Shown here piece by piece: positions 5,611 through 50,541 of a stretch of DNA of 64,000 nucleotides (positions are counted from its first letter, which is position 1; every line of letters begins with the position of its first letter). This stretch comes from an uncultured bacterium (GTDB lineage Bacteria > Cyanobacteriota > Vampirovibrionia > Gastranaerophilales > Gastranaerophilaceae), in the NCBI GenBank assembly GCA_902464375.1, contig CABQIM010000001.1, positions 1,567-65,566 on the forward strand, written 5' to 3'. The translations under genes and the position numbers were made by a program. Under the pieces are notes generated by a model. That model was not told the origin of the DNA and searched no databases. It worked only from the letters and a program-made list of their open reading frames with translations.

Positions 5611-6684
5611 ATGATTAGACCGATTAAACTAGCAGAAAATAATCTTAGATTTGGGGCGAAACCGGAGAAGAAAGAAAGCGGTGAGGCTGAATCACGCATT
5701 CTTCCAAACACTCTTAAAACAAGGGTTGAGCAAAAATTTCAAAAGACAAGCAACGCTATTTTACAATATCCGGTTAAAGGATTAAGAGGAGATGTAAACT
5801 CAGATTTTTATGAATTTCTATCAATGGGAATCGTTCCTTATTTGATTGGTAGCGGCATGTTCATGGGACTATTTAACATGCTTAAAGACTTAAACCCAAA
5901 ATCTCAAAAAATCGCTAGTTTGAATGGTAACAAAATGGCTTTGGGAGTTGTTTTATACGGTCTTATGAAAACACTTTCAAACGATTTGGTAACAAGACCT
6001 GTTTACTGGGGAACCGGAATTGATATAGAACTTCCGATTGAGCATGTTTACTATCCGCTTCCTAAAGAAGCCGGCGAAGCAGCTAATATAATCCCTCAAA
6101 TTCAACAAAGAAAAGTTTACGACAGTAGAGAATTTTTCAGAAAAGACCTAATCCAAAAAGATTATGGAATTGATTATTATAACAAAATCGCCAAAAAAAT
6201 TGGCTTAGGCGAAGATTTAAACGATTCTGTAACAGAAACAACTCCAATTATTCAAAGCGTTGTTTCTACTACAAAAACAGCTAAGAGCCTTTCTTCTTAT
6301 GCTTGGGCAGGTGTCGGAGTTGGTTTAGCAGTACAAAACAGCTGGAGCAATTTCTTTGATGCAATTGCGAACAGAAAACGTCATGTTGCAAAACCTAATG
6401 AAGGTTTAGCAACTAAATTTGGCAGTCGTATGAAAAATGCCGGTGAAAACTTTGTTAACATTTCAAAAACATTCGGCAAATCTTTTGCTCAAGCTTGTAA
6501 AACACTTTGGACAGGAGAAGCAGGTAAGAGCGGATTTATGAAACATGCCGGCAAAGCTTGGTTATTATTCACGGCAGCTTTAACTATCGGTAGTACTGCA
6601 AACGTTATACATAAGGCTAAACATATGGGCAAATTGGCAAATAAAGATATTATGGACAAATCTAAAGAAAGTACGGTGATTTAG
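5611..6684 (+). CDS. Hypothetical membrane protein with N-terminal LRFGA motif
   Basis: 357-aa ORF, about four Gly/Ala-rich hydrophobic segments; similar to the N-terminal domain of the next gene. Confidence 0.8.
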   Translation: MIRPIKLAENNLRFGAKPEKKESGEAESRILPNTLKTRVEQKFQKTSNAILQYPVKGLRGDVNSDFYEFLSMGIVPYLIGSGMFMGLFNMLKDLNPKSQKIASLNGNKMALGVVLYGLMKTLSNDLVTRPVYWGTGIDIELPIEHVYYPLPKEAGEAANIIPQIQQRKVYDSREFFRKDLIQKDYGIDYYNKIAKKIGLGEDLNDSVTETTPIIQSVVSTTKTAKSLSSYAWAGVGVGLAVQNSWSNFFDAIANRKRHVAKPNEGLATKFGSRMKNAGENFVNISKTFGKSFAQACKTLWTGEAGKSGFMKHAGKAWLLFTAALTIGSTANVIHKAKHMGKLANKDIMDKSKESTVI

Positions 6685-6685
6685 T

Positions 6686-9241
6686 ATGGCTATAAATCCT
6701 ATTATTCCAAATAACATTGATAATACTAAATCTCACAAACCTTATCGTGAAGCGACAGGTACTATTAGAACTGACAATGACGTTAAACCGCTTCCGGCGC
6801 AAGGTCACTTGGTTCATGATTCTTTAGTAACAGTTCCAAAATATTTCATCAAGGATATCGCTTATGATATGAAAGCTGTAAAAGATGGTTTTCAAGGTAA
6901 CGCAAATGACCACCAATTAGGCAGACTCAATGATGTTGGCTTAAAACTTGGCGGTATCGGAATTGCAACGATGTTAGCAGCAAGAACCAAAAATCCTATG
7001 CTTAGAATAATGGAATACACCGGCTTGGGCGCATTCCTAGCATCTATGTCATTGTATCCAAAAGTTGCAATTAACGCACCATCAAGAATTGTACAAGGTT
7101 TTGATATCGGTAAAGAATATATTGACGACCAAGGACGAAAGAAGACAGTTTTACAAGACCCTAACTACGTACCGTTTGATATGTACCAAGGAGATTACCC
7201 TGGAGAAGATTTAGACGTTATTGGTGACAGAATGGGTATTCCAAGAGGAATTAAAAACCGTAACGACTTAATCAAAGAACAAATGAGAAAAATCGCTATC
7301 CAAAATAACACATTATGGATGATGACTGCCGGTGTTGCAACACCTGTAATTGCTGCTCTGATGTGTTGTGGATTAGAAAAAGTAATTTCTCCGGCTTTAG
7401 AAAGCGCTAGAAATGTAAAATACAATTCTCAAATCAAAAACGCTTTAACAAAAACTGAAAATATGTCAGAAGATGTGGCTTCAATTTCTGCAAACAAATT
7501 GAGCAAAGAAGTTCAAAAAATTGTTGAAAATTATAAAGGCAAAGAATTACCTGAAGCTGAATTCAATAATTTAGTAAAAATATTCACTACAGAAATGGAC
7601 GCAAACGCATCTGAAGGTATTAAAGATGATTTAGCAAAACTTTTCAGAACTGGCAATTCTTATTCTTTACAAGAAAATGCTTCTGATAAGGTAATAAATT
7701 CTATCAAAAAGAATATTCCTTCCAGAAACAAAGCTGTTTTAGAAAAAGTATTCGTTCCGACAAAAGAAGAAGCCGCTTCTATTCTTAACAAATACGGCAA
7801 AGAAGTTACAGCAGAACAATTAATGAACATCAAAGGCGAATTCAGACAATTGTTTGAAAGCAAAATGGCTGCTGAAAAAGGTGTATCACAAGAAGCTTTA
7901 AAAGCATATCAGAATGAAGTTTTAGAAAAGATTTCAAGCAAATTACAAAGACATCCGGCTCAAGCGGTTGATGAAGCAAAAATCAAGAGCGTTGTTGATT
8001 TTGCCAAGGTTATCGGTGAATTCAAAGACAATCAAAAAGTTCTTGATAAATGCAAATCTTTCAAAGTTGAATATGCACCGGAAACTATTTTAGCAAAATC
8101 TTACGGCAAATTTGAAAGCACATTACTTGACGTTTTGGGTATCAAATTCAAAGATTTGAAACAAATGCGTCAATCTGATAAATATGCTCAAGAAATTCTT
8201 GATAAAAAGTTACAAGAATTAGTAAAAGACGAAACTAAGTACCAAAAAGCAGTGGAAAAACTTACTAAAGTTATGAGTGATATGGAAATTAAGCTTAATG
8301 GAAAAAGTGAAGCTGATTCTCACTTAAAAGACTTGATTACAGGTATTGAAAATAATTATAACAACACAGCTAAACGTTTGAACAATATTGGCGAATTCAA
8401 AAACACTATCGATAAACTTGTAAAAGAAGATGTTTCAACATTGTCTAACTCTGTTACTAATAGACAAGAGTTATTTGATATATTGGATGGTGTGAAAAAG
8501 AGCAAATATGCCGGTGTAAATTATTGGGGTCTAAGTGACGCAGAACAAGTTCAATATGCAAAAGATAACGCTAAAGGCGTTGGTTCTTCTAAAAATCTTG
8601 AAATTTCCAGAATTATTGAACGTTATCAAGGTGCTAAAAATTCTTTCAACAGAGTGTTGCATATGCTTGATACATACAAACGTCCGGAAGCTGATGGAGA
8701 ATATGCAAAATCAGTATTAGCAAAAGGTAAAGAAGCTATATTGCGTGCTACATCTTCTGATCATACAATGAAATTAAATACTGTTAACAATCCTGAATAT
8801 TACAAAGACATTATGCGCACAGTTTGGGATTCAAACAATATTCAGGAAAGCACTAAAGAAGCTATGAAACTATCTAGCGATTTATCAACAGGTGATGTTT
8901 CAGGCAGATTTGCTAAATACTTGAAACGTTTCCAAGATGTAATCGGCAATAACAACATTGATTTTACAAAGCCATACCACATTATTGATGGCAATGCGCC
9001 AAAACAATATACTAAATCAGAAATAACAAGAATGTCTAAATTTAACCTTGTTGCACAAAATTCTGTAGACTTGGTTAAGAATGCAGCAGAAAGAAGATAT
9101 GGTAACCAAAAATGGTTAAGAATAGCTTCCGCTATCGGCGGAACTGTAGTTGGTGCAACAATACTTGCACAATTTGGATTCGGAAAAATAAGAAACCCTC
9201 ATAATATAGAGAAGCAGGTGAGTGATGATGCAAATATCTAA
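6686..9241 (+). CDS. Large hypothetical membrane protein (N-terminal hydrophobic domain, long helical soluble region, C-terminal TM)
   Basis: 851-aa ORF starting 1 nt after the upstream stop. Confidence 0.8.
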   Translation: MAINPIIPNNIDNTKSHKPYREATGTIRTDNDVKPLPAQGHLVHDSLVTVPKYFIKDIAYDMKAVKDGFQGNANDHQLGRLNDVGLKLGGIGIATMLAARTKNPMLRIMEYTGLGAFLASMSLYPKVAINAPSRIVQGFDIGKEYIDDQGRKKTVLQDPNYVPFDMYQGDYPGEDLDVIGDRMGIPRGIKNRNDLIKEQMRKIAIQNNTLWMMTAGVATPVIAALMCCGLEKVISPALESARNVKYNSQIKNALTKTENMSEDVASISANKLSKEVQKIVENYKGKELPEAEFNNLVKIFTTEMDANASEGIKDDLAKLFRTGNSYSLQENASDKVINSIKKNIPSRNKAVLEKVFVPTKEEAASILNKYGKEVTAEQLMNIKGEFRQLFESKMAAEKGVSQEALKAYQNEVLEKISSKLQRHPAQAVDEAKIKSVVDFAKVIGEFKDNQKVLDKCKSFKVEYAPETILAKSYGKFESTLLDVLGIKFKDLKQMRQSDKYAQEILDKKLQELVKDETKYQKAVEKLTKVMSDMEIKLNGKSEADSHLKDLITGIENNYNNTAKRLNNIGEFKNTIDKLVKEDVSTLSNSVTNRQELFDILDGVKKSKYAGVNYWGLSDAEQVQYAKDNAKGVGSSKNLEISRIIERYQGAKNSFNRVLHMLDTYKRPEADGEYAKSVLAKGKEAILRATSSDHTMKLNTVNNPEYYKDIMRTVWDSNNIQESTKEAMKLSSDLSTGDVSGRFAKYLKRFQDVIGNNNIDFTKPYHIIDGNAPKQYTKSEITRMSKFNLVAQNSVDLVKNAAERRYGNQKWLRIASAIGGTVVGATILAQFGFGKIRNPHNIEKQVSDDANI

Positions 9242-10991
9242 GATTATGCCTATTAATTTCAGAGCAGTAGCCCCACAACAACAAGTTGAAACTGCTAAAG
9301 GACAAGAAACAAAGAATATTGATAGTGAAATTTCCGCTAAATATTTACAGAATCTTGCCTTGATGAACGCTGCTTCTGTAAAAAAAGTTGATTTGAAGGC
9401 AACTAAAACAGAACCTTATCAAAACAACCTCAGAAGTATGATTCAAAACAACGAATCTGTTATGATGGCTATTGTACCGAGAACTTTCACTGCAGAAGAT
9501 TTAAACGGAGATGACAAAGTTACATTATCCACAGGAGAAAAGAACGGCACTCTATTGAGCGCTATATCAAGACTTGACGAACTTAAGAACGATGGCATTA
9601 ACACAATACACATTTTACCAATCCATCCTACCGGAAAGAAAAATGCAATGGGTACAGCGGGTTCTTTATATTCTCCTGCTAAATATGTAACTGAAGATGG
9701 TCATTTGGCAATTGACCCGATGATTATTGACCAAAACGACCCAAGAACTCCTGATGAACAATTCAAAGCATTTATTGACGAATGCCACAAACGTAACATA
9801 AAAGTTATGCTAGATTTACCAAGTTGTGCTTCCGTAGATATGTTTGAAGCAGAACCTGAGCTTATGGCATACGGCAGAAACGGTGAAGATAAAACTCCAC
9901 AAGGCTGGGCTGATATCAGAATGTTCGAACCTTGGGCAGATGAAGCTCAAAGAACTTTGAATCCTAAGTTATTAGAAATGCATAAACAATATGTAGATGC
10001 TTGTATTGACTTAGGTTTGGATGGAATCAGAGCGGATGTTGCCAGAGCGAAACCTCCTGAATTTTGGGATGAGTTAATCAGATATTCGCATGAAAAAGAT
10101 CCGCAATTTGCTTGGTTAGCAGAAAGCTATACTTATGAATGTGCTTCTCCGATGGTAAATATGCCGTATGATAGACCGGAAGATTTGCTAAAAGCAGGCT
10201 TTGATGAGTATTACGGACAATATCACATTTTCCACGATTGGAGAAATGCTTCAGAATTTGACGATTATGTAAAATTCAATCTTGATTTGTCACACAAATT
10301 GCCTGCAGGTAAAAGTGTTATCGGTTCATTTCTAACACACGATGACAGCTCTTCAATGATACATGGCGGAGAAAATTTCTGCAAATTAACAACAGTTTTG
10401 CAATCAACAATCCCAATGTGCAATCCATACTTTATTGATGGATTCCAAACCGGCGATTATTACGATTACAAATACCGTAATACAGAAAACATTGAATCTT
10501 ACAACGGCAATACATTGATGAACGAACACAGATATCGTTTAGCATTGTTCAATTTATCAAGAAAACCGGGTGGTGATTGTCCTGATATCGAAAGAGTTAT
10601 GCGTGGTACTTTGAAAATGAGAAGTGAAAACCTTGATGTTCTTGCTGACAAAAATAGTAGCTTTATCGAATTAGACAAACGTGAAGACAGAAACGACCAA
10701 ATTATTGCATATGCAAGACACAACAGCAAAAATGGCAGAACAATACTTGTTGTGGCTAATAAAAATCCAAATAGAAATGTAACAGGTATTGTTGAAATTC
10801 CTGGATTAAAGGAAACACAAAAACTTAAAAATATGGTTCCTGAATATGGTGATACAAGCGAATTCCAAGTTGATGAAGATGAACTTAGAGTAAACCTTGC
10901 ACCATGTGACGCTTATGTTTTTGAAATTGATACTCCTAATATTGAAGAAGATAGAAAAGAACATGCTTTTAAACAAAAAGTTAATGATTAA
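9222..10991 (+). CDS. Alpha-amylase family (GH13) glycoside hydrolase with N-terminal extension
   Basis: GINTIHILPI, KVMLDL, GIRADVA (nucleophile), WLAES (acid/base), FLTHDD; start may be 9225 or 9228. Confidence 0.85.
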   Translation: MMMQISKIMPINFRAVAPQQQVETAKGQETKNIDSEISAKYLQNLALMNAASVKKVDLKATKTEPYQNNLRSMIQNNESVMMAIVPRTFTAEDLNGDDKVTLSTGEKNGTLLSAISRLDELKNDGINTIHILPIHPTGKKNAMGTAGSLYSPAKYVTEDGHLAIDPMIIDQNDPRTPDEQFKAFIDECHKRNIKVMLDLPSCASVDMFEAEPELMAYGRNGEDKTPQGWADIRMFEPWADEAQRTLNPKLLEMHKQYVDACIDLGLDGIRADVARAKPPEFWDELIRYSHEKDPQFAWLAESYTYECASPMVNMPYDRPEDLLKAGFDEYYGQYHIFHDWRNASEFDDYVKFNLDLSHKLPAGKSVIGSFLTHDDSSSMIHGGENFCKLTTVLQSTIPMCNPYFIDGFQTGDYYDYKYRNTENIESYNGNTLMNEHRYRLALFNLSRKPGGDCPDIERVMRGTLKMRSENLDVLADKNSSFIELDKREDRNDQIIAYARHNSKNGRTILVVANKNPNRNVTGIVEIPGLKETQKLKNMVPEYGDTSEFQVDEDELRVNLAPCDAYVFEIDTPNIEEDRKEHAFKQKVND

Positions 10992-11000
10992 ATATTAAAT

Positions 11001-11038
11001 AAAAAAAAGAACACTGGCATGCCGGTATTCTTTTTTTT
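11001..11038. terminator. Bidirectional intrinsic terminator
   Basis: A-run, stem GAACACTGGC/GCCGGTATTC, T-run, between convergent genes. Confidence 0.75.
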
Positions 11039-11046
11039 ATCATTAT

Positions 11047-11604
11047 CTATTTTTGTTCAATTTTTCTGATTACTCTTGCTGGATTGCCTACTGCCAAAGA
11101 ATTTTCAGGAATATCTTTTGTTACTACAGAGCCGGCACCAATTACGCAGCCATTACCAACAGTAACCCCAGGGAGAAATACAACTCCTCCGCCAATCCAA
11201 CAATTTTTACCTATTGTAATCGGCTTTGCTGTTTCTACAAATTTATTTCGTGTTGCATAGTCAAGCGGATGAATCGGTGTATAAAACTGCGTATTAGGTC
11301 CAACAAGTGTGTTATCACCAATTTTAACTTTTGCACAATCCAAGACTGTACAATTAGCATTAAAATAAACACCATTGCCTAATTCTGTATTACATCCGTA
11401 ATCAAAGAAAATATTCGGAGTAATATAACAACCTTCGCCCATTTTACCTAAAAAAGATTTTAAGATTTCTACACGCTTTTGTGCATCAGGTTCGGCATTA
11501 AATTCTTTTGCTTTTCTCTGTGAGTGCTCTCTTAGATTGATTAGTTCTTCATCTTGCATTGGATAATAATCCAAGCCATTAATCATTTTATCAAATTCTC
11601 TCAT
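11047..11604 (-). CDS. maa: Maltose/sugar O-acetyltransferase (hexapeptide repeat)
   Basis: DYGCN..LG..VYFNANC..LD, AKPITIG.NCWIGG, GAGSVVTKD, GNPARV. Confidence 0.85.
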   Translation of the reverse strand: MREFDKMINGLDYYPMQDEELINLREHSQRKAKEFNAEPDAQKRVEILKSFLGKMGEGCYITPNIFFDYGCNTELGNGVYFNANCTVLDCAKVKIGDNTLVGPNTQFYTPIHPLDYATRNKFVETAKPITIGKNCWIGGGVVFLPGVTVGNGCVIGAGSVVTKDIPENSLAVGNPARVIRKIEQK

Positions 11605-11622
11605 AACTAAAAAATATACAAC

Positions 11623-11671
11623 AAAAGGTTAATTGTCAATATTGATATTATCAATATACAATTAACCTTTT
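11623..11671. terminator. Long hairpin, likely terminator of the 70-aa gene; overlaps the -35 (TTGACA) of maa
   Basis: AAAAGGTTAATTGT/ACAATTAACCTTTT plus inner ATATTGATA/TATCAATAT. Confidence 0.6.
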
Positions 11672-11700
11672 AGGATAATCTCTTTTTTTCTCACCAAAAA

Positions 11701-11913
11701 CTATGACTGATAAGCACCGGCTTGTTGAGCAGAAAAACTCCAGACATTAGATGCTTTTAGTTTATCTTTATCAATATGACGCAAATCATCTTGTGCATAA
11801 AGTGATGTTGAATGATGATTGGATGCTTTTGCTGTTTTTCCACCTGAAGGTGACCACGTTGATTCTGTTGCTGTATAACCAGATGCTCTTGATGAACCAT
11901 GAACTGATGACAT
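11701..11913 (-). CDS. Small Ser-rich hypothetical protein (70 aa)
   Basis: AAAGGAGG RBS before ATG; downstream hairpin. Confidence 0.7.
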   Translation of the reverse strand: MSSVHGSSRASGYTATESTWSPSGGKTAKASNHHSTSLYAQDDLRHIDKDKLKASNVWSFSAQQAGAYQS

Positions 11914-12003
11914 AGGAGCCTCCTTTCTTAATATCTTCTTATATTCATCGTATATACATGTAAAGTATTTTTATTTTCTAAAATTTCACAATTTAGCCCA
12001 ATC

Positions 12004-12021: not shown

Positions 12022-12077
12022 GTGGCACAAATTAAAAATCGTTTAAACTATAATAGAAATATACAAAGGAGATTATT

Positions 12078-31726: not shown

Positions 31727-32989
31727 ATGCTATCGTCAATTAACAACTACGAACCAAAAAATTTAAGAGAAAAACAAAAAACAAATTTTAAAGGAATCAC
31801 AATACCTGCGAGTACAAGATTTTTAGATGGATTTGTAAAATCACAAGAAAATTTATCAACAACAAGATTTATACAAGACACAACAACAAATTGGCTGCCA
31901 AAAGCAGCTCTATCAAGAAGCAAAGCCGACTTTTGGGAGTTTTCATTATTAGAATTCGTTGAATCAGGTTTATTTTATTTTGCAGCACCGGTTTTGGGAG
32001 AACATTTATTTAGAAATAAAATTTTTAATAAAATTCAGCCAAAACAAATTATGAATAATGTTACCAAAAGCACTTCCGAAATTAAGAAATCAGCATTAGA
32101 TGCCACTACAAAAAATAAATCTATCGCAACAAAAGCAGGAATTATTACGGCTTGTTTGGCAGTTCCTGCAATGGAATATGCCTTAAGTTTTGCAAAGAAT
32201 TTATTTACATTAAAAGTTTTCCATTTGAGTGATTTCAACAATGTTGCAAACTTAAACTCTGAACAAAAAGAGGATGAAGCACAACAGAATAAAGTCGAAA
32301 CACACGCGAAAAAAGAATTAAAAAAAGCCGGAGTTCTTTCCGCTGCCGGAATTGGAGCAGGAATTTTACTTGCTACACACGGTCACAAATCAAAAACTGC
32401 TTTAAAATTTTCAGAAGCGTTATTAAACCCTGCAGAACCAATTAAAAAAGGACTACATAAAGTGGGCTTAAAATCAAAGAAATTTGACAAATTTCTTGAA
32501 GACTATACGAAGCTTGATTTTGATAATAAAAACGGAAAGTTTGCATTGAGCAAAGGACAACTTGCCCTAACTGCAATAACAGGCTTATTCGGATATTCAG
32601 AAGCTGCCAAAGACAGAGGAAAACTGGATTTTTATGAAGTCTGGACGAGAGTTCCGCTCGTTGTTTTATATACAATTTTTGGTTCCGCAGTGTTTGATGA
32701 AGGATTCAAAAAAATATTAGCCAAGAATGGCAAATTCCCTGATTTAATCAAGAAGTCTAATGATGGAAGCATCAATGTACCATCAAGAAAAGAACTTCCA
32801 AATATTGCAGAGCAGGTAGCTTTGAAAAATAATACTAGCTCAAAAAAAGAATTGGAAAAATTAATTAAACAGAAATCAATAATAACCGGCGTTCCTTATT
32901 TATTCAGTTTAGTTGCGATGGGATTTACACTAACAGCTGTTACAAGACTTTGGACAAAGTACAGATATGAGCATCAATTTGATAAATAA
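31727..32989 (+). CDS. Hypothetical multi-pass membrane protein with N-terminal TNFKG motif
   Basis: About 420 aa, AAGGA RBS before ATG 31727, several Gly/Ala-rich hydrophobic segments separated by Lys-rich loops. Confidence 0.8.
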   Translation: MLSSINNYEPKNLREKQKTNFKGITIPASTRFLDGFVKSQENLSTTRFIQDTTTNWLPKAALSRSKADFWEFSLLEFVESGLFYFAAPVLGEHLFRNKIFNKIQPKQIMNNVTKSTSEIKKSALDATTKNKSIATKAGIITACLAVPAMEYALSFAKNLFTLKVFHLSDFNNVANLNSEQKEDEAQQNKVETHAKKELKKAGVLSAAGIGAGILLATHGHKSKTALKFSEALLNPAEPIKKGLHKVGLKSKKFDKFLEDYTKLDFDNKNGKFALSKGQLALTAITGLFGYSEAAKDRGKLDFYEVWTRVPLVVLYTIFGSAVFDEGFKKILAKNGKFPDLIKKSNDGSINVPSRKELPNIAEQVALKNNTSSKKELEKLIKQKSIITGVPYLFSLVAMGFTLTAVTRLWTKYRYEHQFDK

Positions 32990-36047: not shown

Positions 36048-39002
36048 CTACCAAACTTTTTTCACTTGAAAATACTTTTTACCATTTTTAGTAGATTTTA
36101 TTACATCCATAATGATATCATCCATAACCTCTAAATCGGCTTTCTTTTCTGTAGACAATGACCTCTTCCATTTTTTTAGAGCATTTCTAAAGTCATCACC
36201 ATCTACCATGCATTCATCAGTTCCAATAAGTTTAGAGTATTTTTTCGTGAACCATTTATTAAATTCTTTGTAACCGTCAGTAATCATATCTGATACAATT
36301 TGTGCATTTGTTAAAATGACATCCATATCTTTGAATACGTTTTCGTTGTACTTTCCGGATTTAATACCTACCGCATTAGAAATTTTACCGGTATTATAGC
36401 CTAATCCAAAGTATTCAATACCACGTTTTGCAGCTCCTGCAGCTTGTGCCAAGTCTGAAGAAATTCCGCTTGAACCATCCATATTGAAGAATGCTTTTTC
36501 ACAAGAATATCCGCCATACGCACAAACGATACTTGTAAATAATGCTTCAAACGGCAAGTCGGAATTTTCTTTTCTATTTTCGAACACAGCTCCTAAGAAG
36601 TTACCACGTGGATCAAGAGTTATGAAGTTAACTTCATGTGATTGGTGCCAAGGTTCACCTTTTCTTGCTAATATATCACCCATTACTTCTAAGTTAGTAG
36701 CGTGACCACATTCGTGAGAAGTTGTTGCACGTTTGTTATAATCAGGCATTTCCGGATGAGAGGTTCTTCCTGTTGAAAGCTGTAAATATGCTTCAATAAA
36801 ATCGCCCATAGAAGCTTTGTCTTTGCCACGTTCATACATGATTTGTTTTGTTTTATCAACCAAAGATTTGATTTCTACAAATGACATATACTCTGTCATC
36901 TTTACAAGTTTATCTACCATATGATTGAAATCTTCATCTTTTTTACATTCTACAGGCAAATTAGTATCTTTTATTCTGTTTGCAAGAATTTCACGTCTGG
37001 CTTTTTTATTAAAAGCAGGAGAATCTACTACTATAGATTGGCTAAAGCCTCTTGCAACCATTGGGATTGCATCTGCATAGTATTCGTCAGTAGAACCAAT
37101 TACTACAATGTTAACATCCTCGTTTACTGCTTTTTCCATTTCAGTAGTCAATTGTGACATAGCTTGTTTATACCCAGGGAGATAAGGTCCTGAGAACGCA
37201 AATTGTTCAAAATCACTTACATACAAAATGGCAGTTTTATAAGGGTTCTGTCTTGCAGCTTTTTTAGCTTCAGAGAAAACTCTTTTCATTGCATTTTTAG
37301 GGGTTTCTACGATGTGATTATCTTCGTCCCTTTCAGAATCAGCAAAGTCTGCAGTATTAATAGAAACAAACGGAACTTTTGCTTCTCCGGCAATTGTTTC
37401 TGCTGTATATTTTCTACCGGAACCTGCTTCCGGATCACGAGAATAAATCACAATACCTCTTGTTCCGATATTACCGGTCTTAATTTGTCTGATTATAGCC
37501 TCAATATCCTTTTTAGTTGTTTCTTTACCATACATTCTATCTAAAGTTTTGCCGGTATCATAAACAACACCTTGTTTTTGAGAACTTTTATCAAATAATT
37601 CATAGGCAATTTGAGCAAACTCATCTACATCTCCGCTTGCTATTTCTTGTTTTTGATTTCCGTAATAAGAAGAAATTCTTTTCATCAAATCCAAAGCTTT
37701 ATCCGGAAATACACCTTGCATATTTGCAGCGTGGAAAATTACTCTGTCTTTTGCTTCTTTTGAGAAAGGTGTTTTTATATCCTTTAACATATCATCAGTG
37801 ATGATTTCTTTTGCTTCATAAGTTTGAATAGGTGGAATTGAATATGTCAAATAGTTTTTGAACATTGCACCTAAACTTGGATCATTTACAAGTTTGTAAT
37901 ATACATCATTACTGTAGCAAAGGACTAATTTTATACCATCATCTTTGCTGTTTATAATTTGAGATAATCTCACAACACCTGCTATTTCATCCTTCTCATT
38001 TGTTGCTTGAGAATTTACAAGTAATTGATCCATATTTACAGTGATAATTTTATTTTCTTCCGGTGTACTTTCTTTTATCATCTCAATTTCTTTTAACAAA
38101 CCTACATCGTTGATTGAGTCTGACATAGTAAAGAATATTGTATTTTCTTGGTTAAAGTTTCCGTATTTTTGAGCATTAACAGTTTCAATAAGACTCGCTA
38201 CTAATCTATCAGCTTCTTTTTTATCTTCAAATGTAACATTCAAATTTGAGCCAAGAGCAAGTTTATTCCAAACGTCAATTGCTCTTTTATCATAAGCTGG
38301 CATATAATCTTTGTTAATTTCTTCTGTAGTCTTGTAGAATGTGTAACTTTGCATATCTTCTAAGAAAGATACCGGATATTTTGTTCCATCCGCAGATATT
38401 GTGTTAAACGCTGTACCAAGTAACATGTACGAATCCAGATAAGGAGTGTTAAGTTCTCTTAATTTTTTGTCAAATTTATCTGATAACTTAATATTACCAT
38501 CAGATTCAACTGTTGGCATTGCTTTTATAGCTTCGGCATTATTTTCTTGTAAATCTTGCATTGCGCCAAATAAATAATCTCTGGAATTTTCTGTTTCCAT
38601 CATATTTTTGCCGGAATATTGTTTTGCTAATTTTGTCATAGCAGACAAATCTTCTACACCACCGCTTTCAATAAGTTCCTTTGGTAAATCTTTTGCCAGA
38701 TTTACTGTATGTTGAATTTCAGCCTCTATAACGTGTTCCGGAGTAATTTCACCATGTCCTAATGTTATAGCAATATCCTTTGCATCATTTAATATTTCCT
38801 TAGCATCATCCGTAAAATTCAAATCGGTTTTATCTTCACTTGCTCTAAAAGTTATATAGCTCTTTGGCACACCGGATAATTCTGTATTATTTGGGTTTGT
38901 AACCGTATTTGCTGTATTTTTGGTATCACGTAACTTTGTAAAAGACCTTTTGTATGCAGGTATTTTTGCTGTTGCATCTGCTGAATTAATTCCTAATATC
39001 AC
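36048..39002 (-). CDS. Soluble AAA+/M41 zinc protease: Clp N-domain, degenerate Clp NBD1, FtsH-like AAA and peptidase M41
   Basis: FTDDAKEIL..A...A..LGH.EITPEH; FPDKALDLM; AGEAKVPFVSI; HECGH; GISSDL. Confidence 0.8.
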   Translation of the reverse strand: MILGINSADATAKIPAYKRSFTKLRDTKNTANTVTNPNNTELSGVPKSYITFRASEDKTDLNFTDDAKEILNDAKDIAITLGHGEITPEHVIEAEIQHTVNLAKDLPKELIESGGVEDLSAMTKLAKQYSGKNMMETENSRDYLFGAMQDLQENNAEAIKAMPTVESDGNIKLSDKFDKKLRELNTPYLDSYMLLGTAFNTISADGTKYPVSFLEDMQSYTFYKTTEEINKDYMPAYDKRAIDVWNKLALGSNLNVTFEDKKEADRLVASLIETVNAQKYGNFNQENTIFFTMSDSINDVGLLKEIEMIKESTPEENKIITVNMDQLLVNSQATNEKDEIAGVVRLSQIINSKDDGIKLVLCYSNDVYYKLVNDPSLGAMFKNYLTYSIPPIQTYEAKEIITDDMLKDIKTPFSKEAKDRVIFHAANMQGVFPDKALDLMKRISSYYGNQKQEIASGDVDEFAQIAYELFDKSSQKQGVVYDTGKTLDRMYGKETTKKDIEAIIRQIKTGNIGTRGIVIYSRDPEAGSGRKYTAETIAGEAKVPFVSINTADFADSERDEDNHIVETPKNAMKRVFSEAKKAARQNPYKTAILYVSDFEQFAFSGPYLPGYKQAMSQLTTEMEKAVNEDVNIVVIGSTDEYYADAIPMVARGFSQSIVVDSPAFNKKARREILANRIKDTNLPVECKKDEDFNHMVDKLVKMTEYMSFVEIKSLVDKTKQIMYERGKDKASMGDFIEAYLQLSTGRTSHPEMPDYNKRATTSHECGHATNLEVMGDILARKGEPWHQSHEVNFITLDPRGNFLGAVFENRKENSDLPFEALFTSIVCAYGGYSCEKAFFNMDGSSGISSDLAQAAGAAKRGIEYFGLGYNTGKISNAVGIKSGKYNENVFKDMDVILTNAQIVSDMITDGYKEFNKWFTKKYSKLIGTDECMVDGDDFRNALKKWKRSLSTEKKADLEVMDDIIMDVIKSTKNGKKYFQVKKVW

Positions 39003-39154
39003 TTTGTAATTCTCCTTAATCTATGTTATGTTAAGGTACCTAATTTTATTTTTTGCTATTTAGCTTAAAAAAAATTTACAATTAGTAATAGTTACTTTTT
39101 TAAATTTGTTACATGATATAATGTATTTATTATTTTGATAAGGAGAAAATATTA

Positions 39155-44088: not shown

Positions 44089-44460
44089 ATGATTAAGAAG
44101 GGTTTATTATTATTTTTATCGGCATTTTTAATTTTACCGTCTTTTGCGGGAGAAGTTGAAAATGCAATCAACAAAGGTCATAATGTATTTTTATATTTGT
44201 ACACGCCAGATTGCAAATATTGCAAAATATATTCACCAATGTATAATAAATTAATGAAAGCACATAATGGTGAATTTTCGTTCATAAAAGTTGACGCTTC
44301 AACAAATTACGGTCGAAAATTGATGTATGAATATAGAGGTGGCTACGTTCCTTACGTAGTTATGATAAACAGCAAAAAGCATAAAGCTATGCAAATATTA
44401 CCAGACTGTTTAATGGACACAGTGTGTACTGAAAACGAAATGAAAAGATTTAGAAATTAG
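44089..44460 (+). CDS. Exported thioredoxin-like protein
   Basis: Signal peptide, CKYC, VP motif. Confidence 0.75.
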   Translation: MIKKGLLLFLSAFLILPSFAGEVENAINKGHNVFLYLYTPDCKYCKIYSPMYNKLMKAHNGEFSFIKVDASTNYGRKLMYEYRGGYVPYVVMINSKKHKAMQILPDCLMDTVCTENEMKRFRN

Positions 44461-44468
44461 GAGGGAAT

Positions 44469-45362
44469 ATGAAAGGTATCGTTTTAGCAGGAGGAGCAGG
44501 AACAAGATTATATCCGGCATCACAGCCAATATCTAAAATATTACTTCCTATTTACGATAAACCAATGATTTATTATCCGCTATCAACACTTATGCTTGCG
44601 GGGATTAAAGATATTTTGATTATTACCAATGAGTCTGATTATGATAATTTTATCAAACTTCTCGGTGACGGTTCTCAGTATGGTTTAAATTTGCAATACC
44701 GAATCCAATATGTACAAAGAGGTATCGCAGATGCATTTTTAATTGCAGAAGATTTTATTGATGGAGAAGACGTGGCATTAATTCTTGGTGACAACATTTT
44801 CCATGGTCATGGTTTCTCTACTATTATGAAAGATGCGTTAAAAAAACATTGCGGAGCAACGGTATTCGGATATACGGTAAAAGATCCAGAAAGATTTGGT
44901 GTAGTCGAATTTGACAGCAATAATAAAGCAATTTCTTTAGAAGAAAAACCGGCAAATCCGAAATCTAATTATGCTGTAACCGGTTTGTATTTCTATGATA
45001 ACAAAGTTTGCGATTACGCAAAACTTCTTAAACCATCCAAGCGCGGTGAATTGGAGATTACTGACCTTAATAAAATGTATCTTGAAAAAGGCGAACTTAA
45101 TGTCGAGATTCTTGGTAGAGGTTTTGCTTGGCTTGATACAGGAACGCACGATTCCATGTTACAAGCAAGTTTGTTTGTTCAAACAATGGAGCTAAATAAA
45201 GGTGTAAAGATTTCTTGTTTGGAAGAAATTGCTTACAACCAAGGTTTTATTTCAAAAGAAGAACTTTTGAATAAAATCGAAAAATACGGTTACAAGAATG
45301 AATATTACAATTATGTCCGCACTGTTATAGAACATCCAGATTTGATTGCTACGGGAGTGTAA
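44469..45362 (+). CDS. rfbA: Glucose-1-phosphate thymidylyltransferase
   Basis: KGIVLAGGAGTRLYP, YDKPMIYYPL, LGDNIF, EEKP, RGELEITD, WLDTGT. Confidence 0.95.
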   Translation: MKGIVLAGGAGTRLYPASQPISKILLPIYDKPMIYYPLSTLMLAGIKDILIITNESDYDNFIKLLGDGSQYGLNLQYRIQYVQRGIADAFLIAEDFIDGEDVALILGDNIFHGHGFSTIMKDALKKHCGATVFGYTVKDPERFGVVEFDSNNKAISLEEKPANPKSNYAVTGLYFYDNKVCDYAKLLKPSKRGELEITDLNKMYLEKGELNVEILGRGFAWLDTGTHDSMLQASLFVQTMELNKGVKISCLEEIAYNQGFISKEELLNKIEKYGYKNEYYNYVRTVIEHPDLIATGV

Positions 45363-45367
45363 AATAG

Positions 45368-45622
45368 TTGTCTAAAAGAATTTTACTAACATTATTATTT
45401 TTGTTAATGATATCTACCAGTGTTTATTCAGCATCTATCAATGCTGCGGCATATCGCACAATGCAAATGCAAACTTATCAAAGACAGCAATATCGAGCTA
45501 GAATGAATCAAAGACAAACTCCTTATTGGCAAGCCCAATCAAATTATCAGACAAGAAATAAAATGTATACAAGCTATCCAAGTTCGCAGTATAATATCAA
45601 TCAGTACGGTGGATATAGATAA
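45368..45622 (+). CDS. Small secreted Gln/Tyr-rich hypothetical protein
   Basis: Signal peptide then low-complexity Q/Y/N/R sequence; fills the operon gap exactly. Confidence 0.65.
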   Translation: MSKRILLTLLFLLMISTSVYSASINAAAYRTMQMQTYQRQQYRARMNQRQTPYWQAQSNYQTRNKMYTSYPSSQYNINQYGGYR

Positions 45623-47040
45623 TGATAAATATTGATTGTATTACACTTAAACATTTTTTTGAAGAAAACATTGATTTTATAATCGGAGCAAGACTCCAAA
45701 AGATTCAACAACCTACAAGAAGGGATTTTGTACTTTCACTCAGAAATAATGGTGAAGGAAGAAAATTATACATAAACATTTCTCCGCAGACATATCACAT
45801 ATGTTTTATGTCGAAAGACAACGAAGAAAAACGAAACTTAGCAATTCCTAAACATCCTCCAATGTTTTGTATGTTGCTAAGAAAGTATTTAGAAGGCTGC
45901 CGAATTGCTGATGCGCTAGTCGTTGAAAACGAGAGAATTATTGAATTTCATTTTGAAACGATGGATGAACTGTCGCAAAAGCGTTCACTTTGTTTGTGTG
46001 TTGAACTTATGGGAAAACACTCAAATGTAATCTTATATGATAGAGAAAATTCGATTATTATCGGTTGCGCTCACAATGTCGGAGTAGAAAAAAGCCGATA
46101 TAGAGAACTTCAAGGCGGATTAAAATATATTTATCCTCCAACAAGCCCCAATATACCAACAGAAAGTTTATTGGCTAAACTTAACCAAACAAACTTACCT
46201 GCAAATAGTGTAATTGATGATTATTACGCGAATTTACAAGAAGAAAATAACATAAAAAATGAGCGCCATAGACTTTTGGCAATTGTTAATCCGAAGCTAA
46301 AGAAGGTAAAAGGTTCTATTGATAAAATTACCGTTCTTTTAAAAAAACGCGATAATACAGAAAAATATAAACTTTACGGAGAGCTTTTAACGGCAAATTT
46401 ATACCAGAAAAAAGATTATCAGAAAAATATTGAAGTTTTTGATTATATAAACAATCAAAATATCACAATTGAACTTGATGAAACAAAAACGCTTAATGAA
46501 AATGCACAAAGGTATTTTAAGCTTTATACAAAATCAAAAATAACCAAAGAAAAATCTTTTGAAATGTTAAATGGCTTAAATATGGAAAAAGATTATCTGG
46601 AAAACTTGATTTATAGTATTGAAGAAGCCAAAAACATAAAAGATTTTGAAGAAATTAAAGCTGAATTACAACTAGATGAAATTAAGCCTAAAAAACAAGA
46701 AAAATCAGAACTGCTAAAACTAAATATTAATGGATTTGATGTTTTTGTCGGCAGAAATAATAAGCAAAATGATTATATTATTTCTAAGCTTGCTAAAGAT
46801 GAGGATATCTGGTTCCATGCAAGATTATGCGCTGGCTCACACGTATTACTTAAATTTAATGGCATTCAACCAGGCGAAGAAGTCTTATTTGAATGTTGTA
46901 AACTTGCACGCGAATATTCATCTGCAAAACAGCCATCTAAGGTCGGAATAATTTATACACAAGCAAAATATTTGCGCAAACCTCCGGCTGCACCATTAGG
47001 GTATGTTACATATAAAAATGAAAAAGAAGTTTTAGTGTAA
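45622..47040 (+). CDS. rqcH: Ribosome quality control protein RqcH/NFACT (FbpA) family
   Basis: PPMFCMLLRKYL, ERII, ELMGKHSN, ENAQRYFKLY.K, VGRNNKQND, WFHA...GSHV. Confidence 0.88.
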   Translation: MINIDCITLKHFFEENIDFIIGARLQKIQQPTRRDFVLSLRNNGEGRKLYINISPQTYHICFMSKDNEEKRNLAIPKHPPMFCMLLRKYLEGCRIADALVVENERIIEFHFETMDELSQKRSLCLCVELMGKHSNVILYDRENSIIIGCAHNVGVEKSRYRELQGGLKYIYPPTSPNIPTESLLAKLNQTNLPANSVIDDYYANLQEENNIKNERHRLLAIVNPKLKKVKGSIDKITVLLKKRDNTEKYKLYGELLTANLYQKKDYQKNIEVFDYINNQNITIELDETKTLNENAQRYFKLYTKSKITKEKSFEMLNGLNMEKDYLENLIYSIEEAKNIKDFEEIKAELQLDEIKPKKQEKSELLKLNINGFDVFVGRNNKQNDYIISKLAKDEDIWFHARLCAGSHVLLKFNGIQPGEEVLFECCKLAREYSSAKQPSKVGIIYTQAKYLRKPPAAPLGYVTYKNEKEVLV

Positions 47041-47186
47041 TTTGCTTTATTTTTGTAACAAATTGTTACGCAAAACAAGAAAAAGTGTAAAATATACAAA
47101 TTTTTTGTTTTTTATAGTAATATATAGAAGTTAGTAAAAGTTATTAATTGATGCGAATAGCATCTTTGGAAAAGGAGGCACATGAA

Positions 47187-47645
47187 TTGACAATTGTATC
47201 ATCTTCACTTGACGAGCTAGAAAAACAAAACTTGGACAGAGTAAACTTAGGACAACACGTTCTTGCAGAATTTTTTGAATGTGATCCAAATATATTAAAT
47301 AGTAATGATAAAGTAGAAAAGTACATGATAGAAGCTGCTCTTGAGTGCGGTGCGACAATCGTTCAAAAGTGCTTTCATATGTTTAATCCATATGGCGTTA
47401 GCGGTGTAGTTATTATTTCTGAAAGCCACTTGGCAATTCATACTTGGCCAGAATTAGGTTATGCTGCTGTTGACTTATTCACTTGCGGTACAAAATGTGA
47501 CCCTAAAGTTGCTTATGAATTCTTGAAAAAGAAATTCAACTCTAAAAAAGCTTCTTTTACAGAACTAAAAAGAGGTATCATTGATAGAGAAACCTTAAAA
47601 TTGGCTGAACAACCTTTTGAAATTGCAGAACAATTTGAAGAATAA
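47187..47645 (+). CDS. speD: S-adenosylmethionine decarboxylase proenzyme
   Basis: LGQH, FNPYGVSGV, ISESHLAIHTWPE, DLFTCG; AGGAGG 8 nt before TTG 47187. Confidence 0.92.
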   Translation: MTIVSSSLDELEKQNLDRVNLGQHVLAEFFECDPNILNSNDKVEKYMIEAALECGATIVQKCFHMFNPYGVSGVVIISESHLAIHTWPELGYAAVDLFTCGTKCDPKVAYEFLKKKFNSKKASFTELKRGIIDRETLKLAEQPFEIAEQFEE

Positions 47646-47661
47646 TAATTTATATAATAAC

Positions 47662-47700
47662 AAAACAAAGAGGCTTGCAGTGGCAAGCCTCTTTGTTTTT
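47662..47700 (+). terminator. Intrinsic terminator after speD
   Basis: 17-bp stem AAAACAAAGAGGCTTGC/GCAAGCCTCTTTGTTTT. Confidence 0.85.
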
Positions 47701-47766
47701 TACAGAAATGCAATCTTTCTTTACATTATAGCAATTTTAGTAAATTTATTGTTTTATATATAATGT

Positions 47767-50541
47767 ATGGTTATGAAAGTTGGTAATATTCAAAGCGTAT
47801 TTTTTAGGGGTAAAACTGACACTAAAAAAGATGTTCAATCTAATGTCACTTACCCGCAAATTCGTGAGTTATCTGGTATAACTCCGGATTTTAGCGTGAA
47901 ATTACCACAACAATACACAAAATTACCTACCGTAGAATTAGATAATGGGTTAAAAATACACCAATACAAACTTGCGAACGGATATAGAGTATCCGTCGTA
48001 CCAATGGAAAATTCTCCTGCTGTTGTAAAAAGCTACGTTAATGTAGGCTCTATGAATGAGACTGGTGACATAAAAGGAATTAGCCACTTTTTAGAACACA
48101 TGGCTTTCAATGGCACAAATGGTGAAAATGGACATGAGAAATTAGAAGTCGGAGATTCTTTCAAAAAGATTGATGAACTTGGCGGTTGGGCTAATGCAAG
48201 TACTAATTATGCTATAACAGATTATGTAAATTCGACTCCGCAGCTTGGAGATAATGATTTGGAGAAACAAATCAAAATTATTGCTGCAATGGGAGAAGAT
48301 TTAAAACTATCTGATGATATGATTGCAAAAGAGAAGCATCCGGTTTGCTCTGAAATCAACATGATACTCGATGACCCACAAACTATTGCAATGGATCAGA
48401 CAGTTAGAACATTATTTAATATCAAGAATCCTGCAGATGAGTTAGTTGGCGGCAGCGTCAAGCATATCAAAAATTTAACAAGAAAAGATGTAGTAGATTA
48501 TTATAACAAGTACTACACGCCTGATAATATGAATATCGTTGTTACTGGTGATGTTAATCCGGAAGAAGTCATAAAGCTTGTTGCAAAAAATTTCAACTCT
48601 AATAAAAAGCCACAGGGAGGTAAGTTTGTCGAAAAATTAAGCCCTATCGAAAAGACCGTAAGAAAAGATTTTGTTAATGATAAAGCAAAATCTACAGAAG
48701 TAATTCTTGGTTTTGCAGGTCCTAGAAGTAATAATGCCAGAGAAAAAGTCATCTTTGATGTTGCAAAGGCTTATTTAATGTCATATTCAGTAGGATTAAG
48801 GCAGAATTTAAAACAATATAATGCTCATCCTTACATTGATAGCGAAAAAATCAGTACCAATTTATATGAACCAAATATGGCTTATATAGCTTGTAACACT
48901 GCAGATAATAATTCAGAAAAAGTTTTGCATACAATTTTTGATGCAATATCATCTGCACCAAAACCTGATACAGAAGTTTTGAAAGAAATTAAACAGCGAA
49001 TATTAAAAGCCAAAGAAAATGCAATGGAATTCTCGTCAGATGTTAATAACATCGTTGGAAACGCAGTTTTGAACCAAAATTTAGATTACATATCTAACTA
49101 TAACAGCATATTAGCAAGTATTACACCAGAAGATGTTCAAGATGGTGTAAAAAAATACTTTGACATTAATAAGACAGCTATAACTCTTGTACACCCGCAA
49201 CAAACAAATGCACCAACTTTTAAAGGTAAAACTAATCGTAAACCGATAAATACAAATAATATTAAGGAATGCAAATTAGATAATAATTACAATTTGGGAT
49301 TGTGTAAAACTAAAAATAATAATATTCAGTACAATTTGGATTTACAATTGAATAAACCATACAACAAAAAAGCCGGTGTTATTGAAGTTTTTGATATGAT
49401 GCTGGGAATGGGAACTGCATCTAAAGACGAAAATGAATTCAGCAGATTCAAAGAAAAAAATAATTTAAGTTTAGTTAGCAGCGTGACTTCTAAAAGCTTA
49501 AATTTAGTTTCTACAGCAGGATTTGAAGGTCGAAAGTTAGCTTACGAGAACCTAAAACAGCTTCTTTATGAACCAAGACTTACAGAAGAAAATCTAGCTA
49601 AAGCAAAAGAAAAAATTAGAGATTTTATAACTAGAAAACAAGATAGCGCATATGGATTATATTTGAATGCAGATGCGAAAAATAATCCATATGATTTTTC
49701 AGATACCGAAATCTTAAATAATTTAAATAACATCACTTTAGCAGATATAAAAGATTGTCAACAATACTTTTTAGAAAATGCTAGAGGTGTAATTACAGCG
49801 AATGTTCCGACAGAACATCCGGAAATAGAAGCAGAAGTTGTAGAGTTTTCTAGTGGATTAAATAGAGTTAAACCAAATAATATTGAATTAGTAAATGTTT
49901 ATAATCCAAACAGCAAGCCTATTGTATTGAGCAAAGTAAACAACAATTCTCAGGCTGATATAATGATGGTTCACAAGTTTAAACGCGAAAACTCTATTAA
50001 GGATTCAGTTCTTGGAGAACTTACAAATTCTATTCTTACAAATTCCAGCATTGGGCTATTTAATGTCTTAAGAGAAAAAGAACATTTAGCATATTCTGTT
50101 TACTCAAATATAGAAAAAAATGGTGATTTGGGTGAAATTTCTTGCAACATATTAACAACAACCGATAATAAAGATATTGGTGAAATTTCTTATGAGAATG
50201 TTCAAAAGTCGATTGATGGCTTCAAAAAGCAGATTAATGAATTAAAGTCTGGTAAGTTTACCGAACAAGATTTAAAGAATGCAAAATTGAGTTTGAAAGC
50301 TAATCTTCTCCAAATGGAAGGAACTGACGCCAAATTGGGCACACTTAATTTAGGTTTAAATTCAAAATATGGAATAACTTATTCTAATCAACTTTATGAC
50401 GAGATTGATAAAATTACAAAAGATGACATTTTGAATTATGCAGATAAAATATTCAAAAATCCGCCAATATACTCTATTGTAGCAAGTAAAGATACCCTAG
50501 AGAACAATAAAGATTATTTGGACGAAATTAAAGAGGCATAG
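47767..50541 (+). CDS. M16 (pitrilysin/processing peptidase) family zinc protease with N-terminal extension
   Basis: VGSMNE..GISHFLEHMAFNG (HxxEH), NAST, YYTPDNM, LFNVLRE..LAYS. Confidence 0.9.
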   Translation: MVMKVGNIQSVFFRGKTDTKKDVQSNVTYPQIRELSGITPDFSVKLPQQYTKLPTVELDNGLKIHQYKLANGYRVSVVPMENSPAVVKSYVNVGSMNETGDIKGISHFLEHMAFNGTNGENGHEKLEVGDSFKKIDELGGWANASTNYAITDYVNSTPQLGDNDLEKQIKIIAAMGEDLKLSDDMIAKEKHPVCSEINMILDDPQTIAMDQTVRTLFNIKNPADELVGGSVKHIKNLTRKDVVDYYNKYYTPDNMNIVVTGDVNPEEVIKLVAKNFNSNKKPQGGKFVEKLSPIEKTVRKDFVNDKAKSTEVILGFAGPRSNNAREKVIFDVAKAYLMSYSVGLRQNLKQYNAHPYIDSEKISTNLYEPNMAYIACNTADNNSEKVLHTIFDAISSAPKPDTEVLKEIKQRILKAKENAMEFSSDVNNIVGNAVLNQNLDYISNYNSILASITPEDVQDGVKKYFDINKTAITLVHPQQTNAPTFKGKTNRKPINTNNIKECKLDNNYNLGLCKTKNNNIQYNLDLQLNKPYNKKAGVIEVFDMMLGMGTASKDENEFSRFKEKNNLSLVSSVTSKSLNLVSTAGFEGRKLAYENLKQLLYEPRLTEENLAKAKEKIRDFITRKQDSAYGLYLNADAKNNPYDFSDTEILNNLNNITLADIKDCQQYFLENARGVITANVPTEHPEIEAEVVEFSSGLNRVKPNNIELVNVYNPNSKPIVLSKVNNNSQADIMMVHKFKRENSIKDSVLGELTNSILTNSSIGLFNVLREKEHLAYSVYSNIEKNGDLGEISCNILTTTDNKDIGEISYENVQKSIDGFKKQINELKSGKFTEQDLKNAKLSLKANLLQMEGTDAKLGTLNLGLNSKYGITYSNQLYDEIDKITKDDILNYADKIFKNPPIYSIVASKDTLENNKDYLDEIKEA

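Follow-up and report, generated by a model that had tools for sequence, protein, structure and literature searches.

Why should proteins as unlike as a glucan enzyme, an FtsH-like protease, an M16 peptidase and orphans with hydrophobic segments begin with the same kind of polar, non-hydrophobic extension? The question is raised by a 64,000-nucleotide stretch of DNA, here called the window, from an uncultured bacterium of the Gastranaerophilales (contig C1 of genome G000; 1.8 Mb, 86% complete, ~33% GC). The original prediction had singled out five such proteins sharing the short motif F-[GKR]-[GA] and proposed that a dedicated export route delivers them; all five open reading frames (ORFs) and their motifs lie where it had placed them. 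We find that the extension carries a real, conserved short linear motif set in disordered, acid-poor N-terminal tails (the leader), that a promoter-like box common to many of the leader genes marks them as a regulon, and that a second, flagellum-derived type III apparatus is conserved in these bacteria whether or not a flagellum is present and is a candidate for the export route.

Taken alone, the motif is near chance. Among 1434 G000 proteins called with a custom ORF script, some of whose start codons are uncertain, the bare form (F-[GKR]-[GA] within the first 60 residues) occurs in 104 N-termini against 79.6±8.2 after shuffling (maximum 109 over 200 shuffles), and among 1173 long proteins it is found in 87 N-terminal windows and 60 internal ones. 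Seven of the 52 window ORFs match it, ValS and an MFS-like transporter among them, so the claim that housekeeping genes lack the motif is not strictly true. The start pattern sharpens the motif (39/120 vs 154/1314; internal control, 9/96 vs 88/1037), and the enrichment that had been proposed for the bare form holds for a bipartite one. A bipartite model, seeded and trained without contig C1 and cross-validated, so that window proteins are scored as held-out, gives at least 5 bits, the threshold for the leader cohort, to 56 of the 1434 proteins, against 2.1 in decoys starting at internal methionines and 1.8 in shuffles that keep composition; at 8 bits or more there are 43 proteins against 0.5-0.6. 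The 56 proteins fall into 52 families. Their consensus is M-[KRN]-[IV]-x-x-[IV]-[NS], a spacer of free length, and N-[PVI]-[SN]-F-[KRQ]-[GAS], with the F at residues 10-50; in the training set I or V fills the first start-block position in 89% of cases and the second in 74%. The spacer is rich in Asn, Gln, Thr and Pro and poor in acidic residues (D+E 2.6% vs 12.8%). Because the codons at the motif vary synonymously, the leader is a motif of the protein rather than of the DNA. An N-terminal hydrophobic stretch of the Sec, Tat or lipoprotein kind is present in 1/56 cohort proteins vs 245/1358 others, and 18/56 have hydrophobic segments further into the protein. Organellar transit peptides are also polar N-terminal extensions, processed by M16 peptidases; the leader resembles them in being a polar, acid-poor, disordered extension before the fold, one that the M16 peptidase itself carries, and differs in its fixed Phe motif at variable distance.

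An independent DNA element, not noticed in the original prediction, marks the same genes, which argues against a leader produced by chance. The sequence TAGCAA is enriched upstream of cohort genes (13/48 vs 43/956), and the box itself reads GCAA, 15-16 nt, GTTTT[AT]A. Scored with a two-block matrix under five-fold cross-validation, window boxes held out, it reaches the threshold of at least 10 bits before 26/53 cohort genes vs 47/1311 others (p 3e-21), and before 23/41 vs 31/354 once genes are matched for first-in-operon position and AT content (reverse strand, 1/41). Box-positive genes outside the cohort are themselves enriched in polar N-termini (14/31 vs 138/1223). In the window the box precedes 5611 (with 6686 and 9222 following), 39002, 47767, 60559 and 61289, and it is found at 26 of 29 orthologous loci of the M16 gene. 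At many M16 loci (L077-L105) it ends 3 nt before the start codon, which suggests leaderless mRNAs. We infer that the box is the -35/-10 of an alternative sigma factor; candidate sigma factors number seven to eight per genome. A group-2 sigma on C9 was considered as an autoregulated master and rejected, its upstream box being present at 0/29 orthologous loci. The window features belonging to this regulon or carrying the leader are the following.

5555..5589, plus strand: promoter-like box of the GCAA...GTTTTA type, heading the 5611-6686-9222 operon (10.9 bits, held out)
5611..6684, plus strand: 357-aa orphan with hydrophobic segments; leader at residues 1-16, F14, codon 5650
6686..9241, plus strand: 851-aa orphan, second gene behind the box; polar start, no scored F motif
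9225..10991, plus strand: GH13 glucan enzyme (gene 9222); leader with F12, codon 9258
31727..32989, plus strand: 420-aa orphan; leader with F21, codon 31787 (10.7 bits, held out)
36048..39002, minus strand: 984-aa Clp_N-AAA-M41 (FtsH-like) protein (39002); F codon 38849
39027..39058, minus strand: promoter-like box of 39002 (10.1 bits, held out)
47729..47761, plus strand: promoter-like box of the M16 gene (17.9 bits)
47767..50541, plus strand: 924-aa two-lobed M16 peptidase with HxxEH; disordered leader at residues 1-44, F13, codon 47803
49207..49227, plus strand: internal motif copy in the disordered linker between the M16 halves, F485
60502..61233, plus strand: box (60502-60534, 20.1 bits) and 224-aa orphan without a scored leader (60559); same regulon
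61231..62389, plus strand: box (61231-61262, 15.6 bits) and two lipoprotein-like orphans (61289, 61859); same regulon, no F motif

The M16 peptidase offers the clearest view of the leader. Its held-out score is 14.4 bits, and an orthologue is present in 95/101 genomes. Of the 29 best loci, 16 have a leader of at least 5 bits, and several of the rest have a short M-x-K-I-x-P-x-F form to which the model can assign no score. Among 117 full-length homologues (of 120 listed) the F motif is found in the extension of 108, at residues 11-13 in most, and as the internal copy in 110; F485 is invariant in 101 aligned sequences. In the AlphaFold model exactly residues 1-44 and 479-490 fall below pLDDT 50, and therefore neither copy is part of the fold, a question that the original prediction had left to be settled. 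An identical run of eight residues lies inside two unrelated cohort proteins (window 49207-49230; G000 C13:577-2532), in different codons. The 39002 protein has a 52-aa leader ending in G-[VI]-P-x-S-Y-I-x-F (4.9 bits held out), in which F52 is invariant in 72/72 full-length homologues (75 listed) and forms a conserved island inside a hypervariable tail. The 5611 leader scores 0.8 bits held out, and the protein is retained because its homologues keep the F (97% of 79, near-identical ones dropped). For 31727, which has no box (-1.1 bits), distant homologues show P-x-F-[GSQ]-[GAS] variants; in 101 of 150 distant representatives, those of at least 380 aa starting with M, the pattern P/V/I-x-F-G/S/K occurs in 44, against 14.1 after shuffling (maximum 24), at variable distance within P/S/T/Q-rich tails. 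Both 5611 and 31727 match only unnamed ESM Atlas clusters, mostly of Candidatus Melainabacteria; the nearest named cluster to 5611 is MTP18-like (score 0.78, a lead only). The GH13 enzyme 9222 scores 5.7 bits. Thus conservation in orthologues stands for 5611, 39002 and 47767 and more loosely for 31727, but the F motif is mostly lost for 9222. Among homologues the motif is kept while flanks and spacing change, and in a shorter GH13 paralogue from a relative, as in an M16 paralogue, a Sec-like signal stands where the leader would be. These data bear out the proposal of a leader that is specific to the lineage, is not of the Sec type and is found on membrane proteins, proteases and glucan enzymes alike. 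The suggestion that the motif recurs internally applies to the M16 peptidase; the GISFGK of a 739-aa window protein scores 1.3 bits and is not a real copy.

To the GH13, FtsH-like and M16 proteins that the window contributes, the rest of the genome adds a putative cargo that is largely without family matches. Of the cohort proteins outside C1, 37 were scanned (one that was fetched was left out, and 16 lie on contigs not fetched), and most match nothing. The matches comprise GH13 (2), GH77 (2), a GlgA-like glycosyltransferase, AAA ATPases (2), an MTP18-like protein and FliK, with weak matches to a phosphatase, GNAT and RelA-like proteins; near-threshold relatives bring in CDC48-like ATPases and an ABC1 kinase.

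Which machine might read such a leader? G000 carries a full flagellum and, besides it, second copies of FlhA, FlhB, FliF, FliE, FliH, FliI and FliJ together with FliK-like and FlgB/C/F/G/E-like genes. The second type III secretion system, hereafter T3SS-2, comprises FliE/F, a protein in the FliG position that matches no family, FliH/I/J, FlhA/B, FliO/P/Q/R, a FliM/N-type protein, rod/hook homologues, a FliK-like ruler, a lytic transglycosylase and a cytoplasmic-domain-only FlhA; a single operon holds the set in G272 and G018, and the export gate and ATPase set (SctRSTUV, SctN and SctL homologues) is complete across G000 and its relatives. The FlhA family (FHIPEP) is present in 151/151 genomes of the order and flagellin in 48/151. 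Flagellin-less genomes keep fliO-P-Q-R with the FliM/N-type gene (5/5 and 4/4) and the rod/hook homologues (4/4). The second FlhA, FlhA2, is 38% identical to FlhA1 in G000 and is present across the order, for which reasons bin contamination was rejected as its source. It is 81-95% identical across the family and has short branches in flagellin-less genomes. In a 24-sequence FastTree, whose deep placement is unresolved, the FlhA2 sequences group as a clade of their own (support 1.0) that excludes the five SctV sequences and stands apart from the lineage's flagellar FlhA; FlhA2 scores 697 bits on the FlhA model and 586 on the SctV model, both under the cut-off. Conservation of T3SS-2 is thus observed with or without a flagellum.

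By the criteria applied, T3SS-2 is neither an injectisome nor a flagellum. It differs from injectisomes in the position of FlhA2, in a ring of the FliF type instead of the SctJ type and in the lack of a linked secretin, the secretins found lying in type IV pilus operons. It differs from the flagellum in being without flagellin, L-ring, stator and recognisable FliG, and resembles it in FliE, FliF, rod/hook homologues, FliK-like ruler, FliJ and FliO. In flagellin-less genomes MotA/ExbB matches adjoin ExbD-like genes, and the closed genome G089 has none. Each of two type IV pilus-type operons in G000 (C24:15233-20387 and C28:9831-14948) has a secretin, and a pilus operon with a secretin is found in 5/5 genomes tested. 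The original prediction had suggested a comparison with flagellar type III and type IV secretion loci: the former have yielded T3SS-2 as a candidate, but the type IV secretion system (T4SS) was rejected as a route, VirB4-type systems being found in 0/151 genomes. A search for CesT-type chaperones matched in 0/5 genomes, and its control likewise matched nowhere. Some parts of the apparatus are unusual. An FlhA cytoplasmic domain without membrane part is encoded in G000 (C42:5224-6690, L003) after a weak DUF4177-like domain (E 0.03), and a second FHIPEP match in flagellin-less genomes is consistent with the same protein, which is a candidate receptor for the tag. FliP2 of G052 (L005:1453-2696) has 213 aa vs 252 in the flagellar copy, whose N-terminal extension it does not have; FliQ2, with 162 aa vs ~88, is lengthened by a tail at its C-terminus. 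In a more distant lineage of the phylum, G151 (L107) carries a second fliF-flhA pair branching apart from both FlhA2 and SctV; its leader count, 0/304, rests on ORF calls that are mostly shadow frames in this 67% GC genome.

The distribution of leader and box was then compared with that of FlhA, all links being among related, non-independent genomes and amounting to ~10 family-level comparisons rather than 121. FlhA-type matches are present in 92/121 genomes of the class and in 0/28 of family f42; 84 of 201 genomes sampled from the phylum have none. The leader (at least 5 bits) is found in 8/342 proteins of the flagellin-less G052 (0.3-0.8 expected) and in 6/198 of G272, which has the whole T3SS-2 operon (0.3-0.4 expected), and in none of the FlhA-less G320 (0/131) and G166 (0/163); a GH77 homologue in G320 is without the N-terminal extension. 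The box exceeds its backwards control 2.5-36 fold in nine FlhA2-bearing families (f1, 675/124; f41, 61/6; f49, 36/1; f47, 261/24; f44, 140/31; f10, 53/13; f43, 62/25; f45, 45/15; f48, 6/0) and shows no enrichment in the 28 FlhA-less f42 genomes (92 vs 91). At family level, the box tracks FlhA2 with one single-genome exception.

Judging from gene content and distribution, we think it on balance somewhat probable that the tag routes co-regulated cargo through T3SS-2 for export beyond the cell envelope, the leader being the substrate signal of this filament-less, flagellum-derived machine. The cargo genes would be transcribed under an alternative sigma factor at a single life stage. In their products the polar N-terminus would be the part that goes into the gate, with a chaperone or docking subunit holding the Phe motif. 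The second copy of the motif, before the second M16 lobe, suggests that each folded unit has its own binding site and that the signal is not confined to the terminus. Such cargo (GH13, GH77, GlgA-like, CDC48/FtsH-like ATPases, M16, ABC1 kinase, MTP18-like and other membrane proteins) would then pass a rod/hook-like tube and be active beyond the cytoplasm, the most plausible site being a prey or host cell whose glucan and protein reserves it would mobilise; the cytoplasm of another cell is favoured over the periplasm because the cargo needs ATP or nucleotide sugars. On the F matrix, rod/hook-type substrates of G000 stand a little above background (4/19 vs 3.2% score 7 bits or more, p 0.005). 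We would propose, more tentatively and as a possibility only, that gut Gastranaerophilales, and with them several sister families, live as cryptic predators, parasites or symbionts. An independently exapted injection machine, derived from the flagellum and having a rod/hook-type tube, would deliver ~50-100 Phe-tagged effectors of a dedicated sigma regulon into another cell, giving access to its glucan and protein reserves.

Several observations weigh against export through T3SS-2. All links between leader, box and machine are co-occurrences among related, non-independent genomes. The leader is near-absent from three FlhA2-bearing genomes (G248, 0/149; G275, 0/167; G284, 1/167), a count made with a model trained on an AT-rich genome that may miss P-x-F-G variants elsewhere; only 2/8 leader genes of G052 have a box of at least 10 bits, and the single genome of family f46, with no FlhA match, has 16 boxes vs 6 controls. 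Apparatus genes of T3SS-2 are without the cargo box (all below 7 bits), box-bearing genes include lipoprotein-like proteins, and orthologues of 9222 keep the polar tail, with the F motif at 5 bits or more in 5/29 only. An invariant internal copy, as in the M16 peptidase, is odd for a pure N-terminal export signal. On the side of the machine, FlgH (L-ring) is found in 0/3 flagellin-less genomes, and needle, tip and translocon were not recognised in general protein scans, no search having been aimed at them; no passage across the outer membrane was identified. FliP2/Q2/R2, seen in relatives, were not found in the 86%-complete G000. The leader also departs from motifs defined for type III substrates. 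The gate-recognition form F-x-x-x-hydrophobic fails, a hydrophobic residue standing at F+4 in 13/43 leaders (background 0.30); F lies at position 20 or earlier in 25/43, short of the 19-24-residue spacing of the flagellar signal discussed below; and the class IB chaperone-binding pattern CCBD, [LMIF]xxx[IV]xx[IV]xN near the N-terminus, is found in 0/43.

Some of these points would be better accommodated if the tag acted inside the cell, as an adaptor site, degron or processing site of a stage-specific regulon with its own AAA+ and M16 proteases, T3SS-2 co-occurring through shared lineage and life stage. A cut at the invariant M16 linker copy would separate the two lobes, the cohort contains several proteases and unfoldases, the apparatus genes lack the box and the motif is unlike the defined type III motifs. 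We consider this rather unlikely: the GH13 and M16 paralogues carry a Sec-like signal in place of the leader, box enrichment vanishes in the FlhA-less f42, and, from what is generally known of type III substrates, glucan enzymes, eukaryote-like proteins and orphan membrane proteins that begin with long, disordered tails poor in acidic residues look more like exported cargo. The maturation at the motif that had been suggested originally belongs to this reading; no evidence was found that the M16 peptidase of the window processes the leader. The leader might also be an export or sorting signal for a different route, be it a type IV pilus/secretin machine, vesicles or an unrecognised translocase, given that all five genomes tested have a pilus operon with a secretin, that a direct link of leader to T3SS-2 is lacking and that T3SS-2 has no known outer-membrane ring; pilus and type II cargo nevertheless need Sec or Tat signals, which 55/56 cohort proteins are without, and with VirB4 not found in any of the 151 genomes we hold another route to be distinctly improbable.

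Export might also stop in the cell's own periplasm or envelope, T3SS-2 building a storage or resting-stage compartment (own glucan turnover, proteolysis) with no other cell involved. The missing L-ring and the failure of general scans to recognise needle or translocon agree with this, as do the GlgA-like synthase found beside degrading enzymes and the argument of Abby and Rocha that secretin-less Myxococcales systems do not reach other cells (PMC3459982). AAA+ ATPases, a kinase and a nucleotide-sugar enzyme would however need ATP or ADP-glucose, which the periplasm does not hold, and this makes a purely periplasmic role very improbable. Reading of the tag by the ordinary flagellar export apparatus, to which the full flagellum of G000 and the 5.6 bits of its FliK on the leader model might point, is largely refuted and retains hardly any probability, since leader and box persist in flagellin-less genomes whose single full-length FlhA is of the second type. 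Chance or composition, that is, Asn-rich N-termini of orphans in an AT-rich genome, would explain why the bare motif stays inside the shuffle range; it is refuted by the 56 proteins against ~2 in composition-keeping shuffles, the varied synonymous codons, the F invariant in homologues and the independent box.

Export through T3SS-2 has partial parallels in several known systems. The early-subunit signal of Salmonella FlgD consists of 2-SIAV-5 and a gate-recognition motif 36-FLTLL-40, with 19-24 residues needed between them (PMC8983047). The leader shares with it small hydrophobic residues near the N-terminus, a free polar spacer, a downstream Phe motif and the absence of a cleavable signal peptide; it differs in that F is followed by K/R/Q and then G/A/S with no hydrophobic residue at +4, in a spacing often below 19-24, in the internal occurrence of the tag and in a cargo of enzymes and membrane proteins instead of axial subunits. 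We do not class the tag as a flagellar bipartite signal because the defining motif and spacing of the latter fail. As in HrpL-type effector regulons (PMC3879358; 'terminal reassortment' cited in PMC9963460), genes that are otherwise unrelated have a promoter box in common and carry the signal at the N-terminal end of their products; unlike the HrpL regulon, the box here is GCAA-N15/16-GTTTT[AT]A, is absent from apparatus genes and has several candidate sigma factors. Chlamydia secretes GlgA, GlgB, GlgX, GlgP and MalQ by type III signals (PMC4829429), and GH13, GH77/MalQ and GlgA-like proteins here likewise carry N-terminal non-Sec leaders; there an injectisome delivers them into a known compartment, whereas here the machine is of other ancestry. 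Non-flagellar type III systems, the secretin-less one of Myxococcales included, likewise keep a flagellar export core without filament or motor (PMC3459982). T3SS-2 has FliE, FliF, FlgB/C/F/G/E-like and FliK-like genes, which the Myxococcales systems are there said to lack; Cyanobacteria are not mentioned in the sections of that paper covered here (Abby and Rocha 2012).

We found no literature on leader, box or second type III system in this group (subscription papers and the supplements of PMC3787301 and PMC4451040 were outside the scope). Di Rienzi 2013 lists the ACD20 operon order flgG, flgG, flgC, fliF, fliH, flhA, fliI, flgE, which matches T3SS-2, and reads MEL.A1, without filament, cap, junction, L and P rings, as a case of reduction; in the text of that paper gut Melainabacteria are free-living fermenters with decaying partial flagellar sets, and no successful culture is reported (PMC3787301). 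Soo 2015 notes that flagella have been lost within the order and, for predation by the Vampirovibrio attack spike, puts forward a T4SS (PMC4451040). Both, in the parts covered, treat the set as flagellar and its partial state as ongoing genome reduction, whereas here it appears as a separate, slower-evolving paralogous system beside a real flagellum. A universally kept second export machine with tagged, co-regulated cargo would, if confirmed, imply a host- or prey-dependent life stage. Delivery by T3SS-2 would offer an alternative to the proposed T4SS, and it would mean that the sister group of oxygenic cyanobacteria had, in a separate event, exapted the flagellum to deliver proteins. Tag and box together yield a predictable cargo list, so that the idea is directly testable.

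The remaining observations concern neighbouring regulons and genes. The orphans 61289 and 61859, whose MNVQRV and MNISKI starts had been likened to the leader, share the box regulon but are without the F motif. Lipoprotein-like orphans with M-x-[IV]-[NQT] starts occur at window 61289-62389 and at C30:1671 and C32:15306 in G000, of which 61289 and C32:15306 have the box. The 739-aa protein was rejected as a cohort member on account of its low-scoring internal motif and its different, sigma-28-type promoter.

2747..5050, minus strand: 739-aa protein, outside the cohort; sigma-28-type promoter at 5025-5050

A long, exact sigma-28-type box has 23 copies in G000 and 0-1 in four other genomes. The 17 other genes that it marks, that of the 739-aa protein included, are without the GCAA box; the set it heads consists of large orphans whose N-termini are polar and which may be late substrates of the true flagellum. 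A sigma-28-like -10 precedes T3SS-2 operons in 3/7 upstream regions only. That FliA was lost along with the flagellum proved wrong, FliA being kept in 5/5 genomes. Three related, divergent FliA-like sigmas of G000 (C15:1476, C29:19017 and C4:13114), one of them beside flhB2, are candidates for either regulon. Finally, the window run at 55144-56838, which we take to encode a thioesterase, a pseudouridine synthase and a dephospho-CoA kinase, has a second, diverged copy at C81:1538-3257 in G000, the result of either duplication or bin contamination (5.3%).

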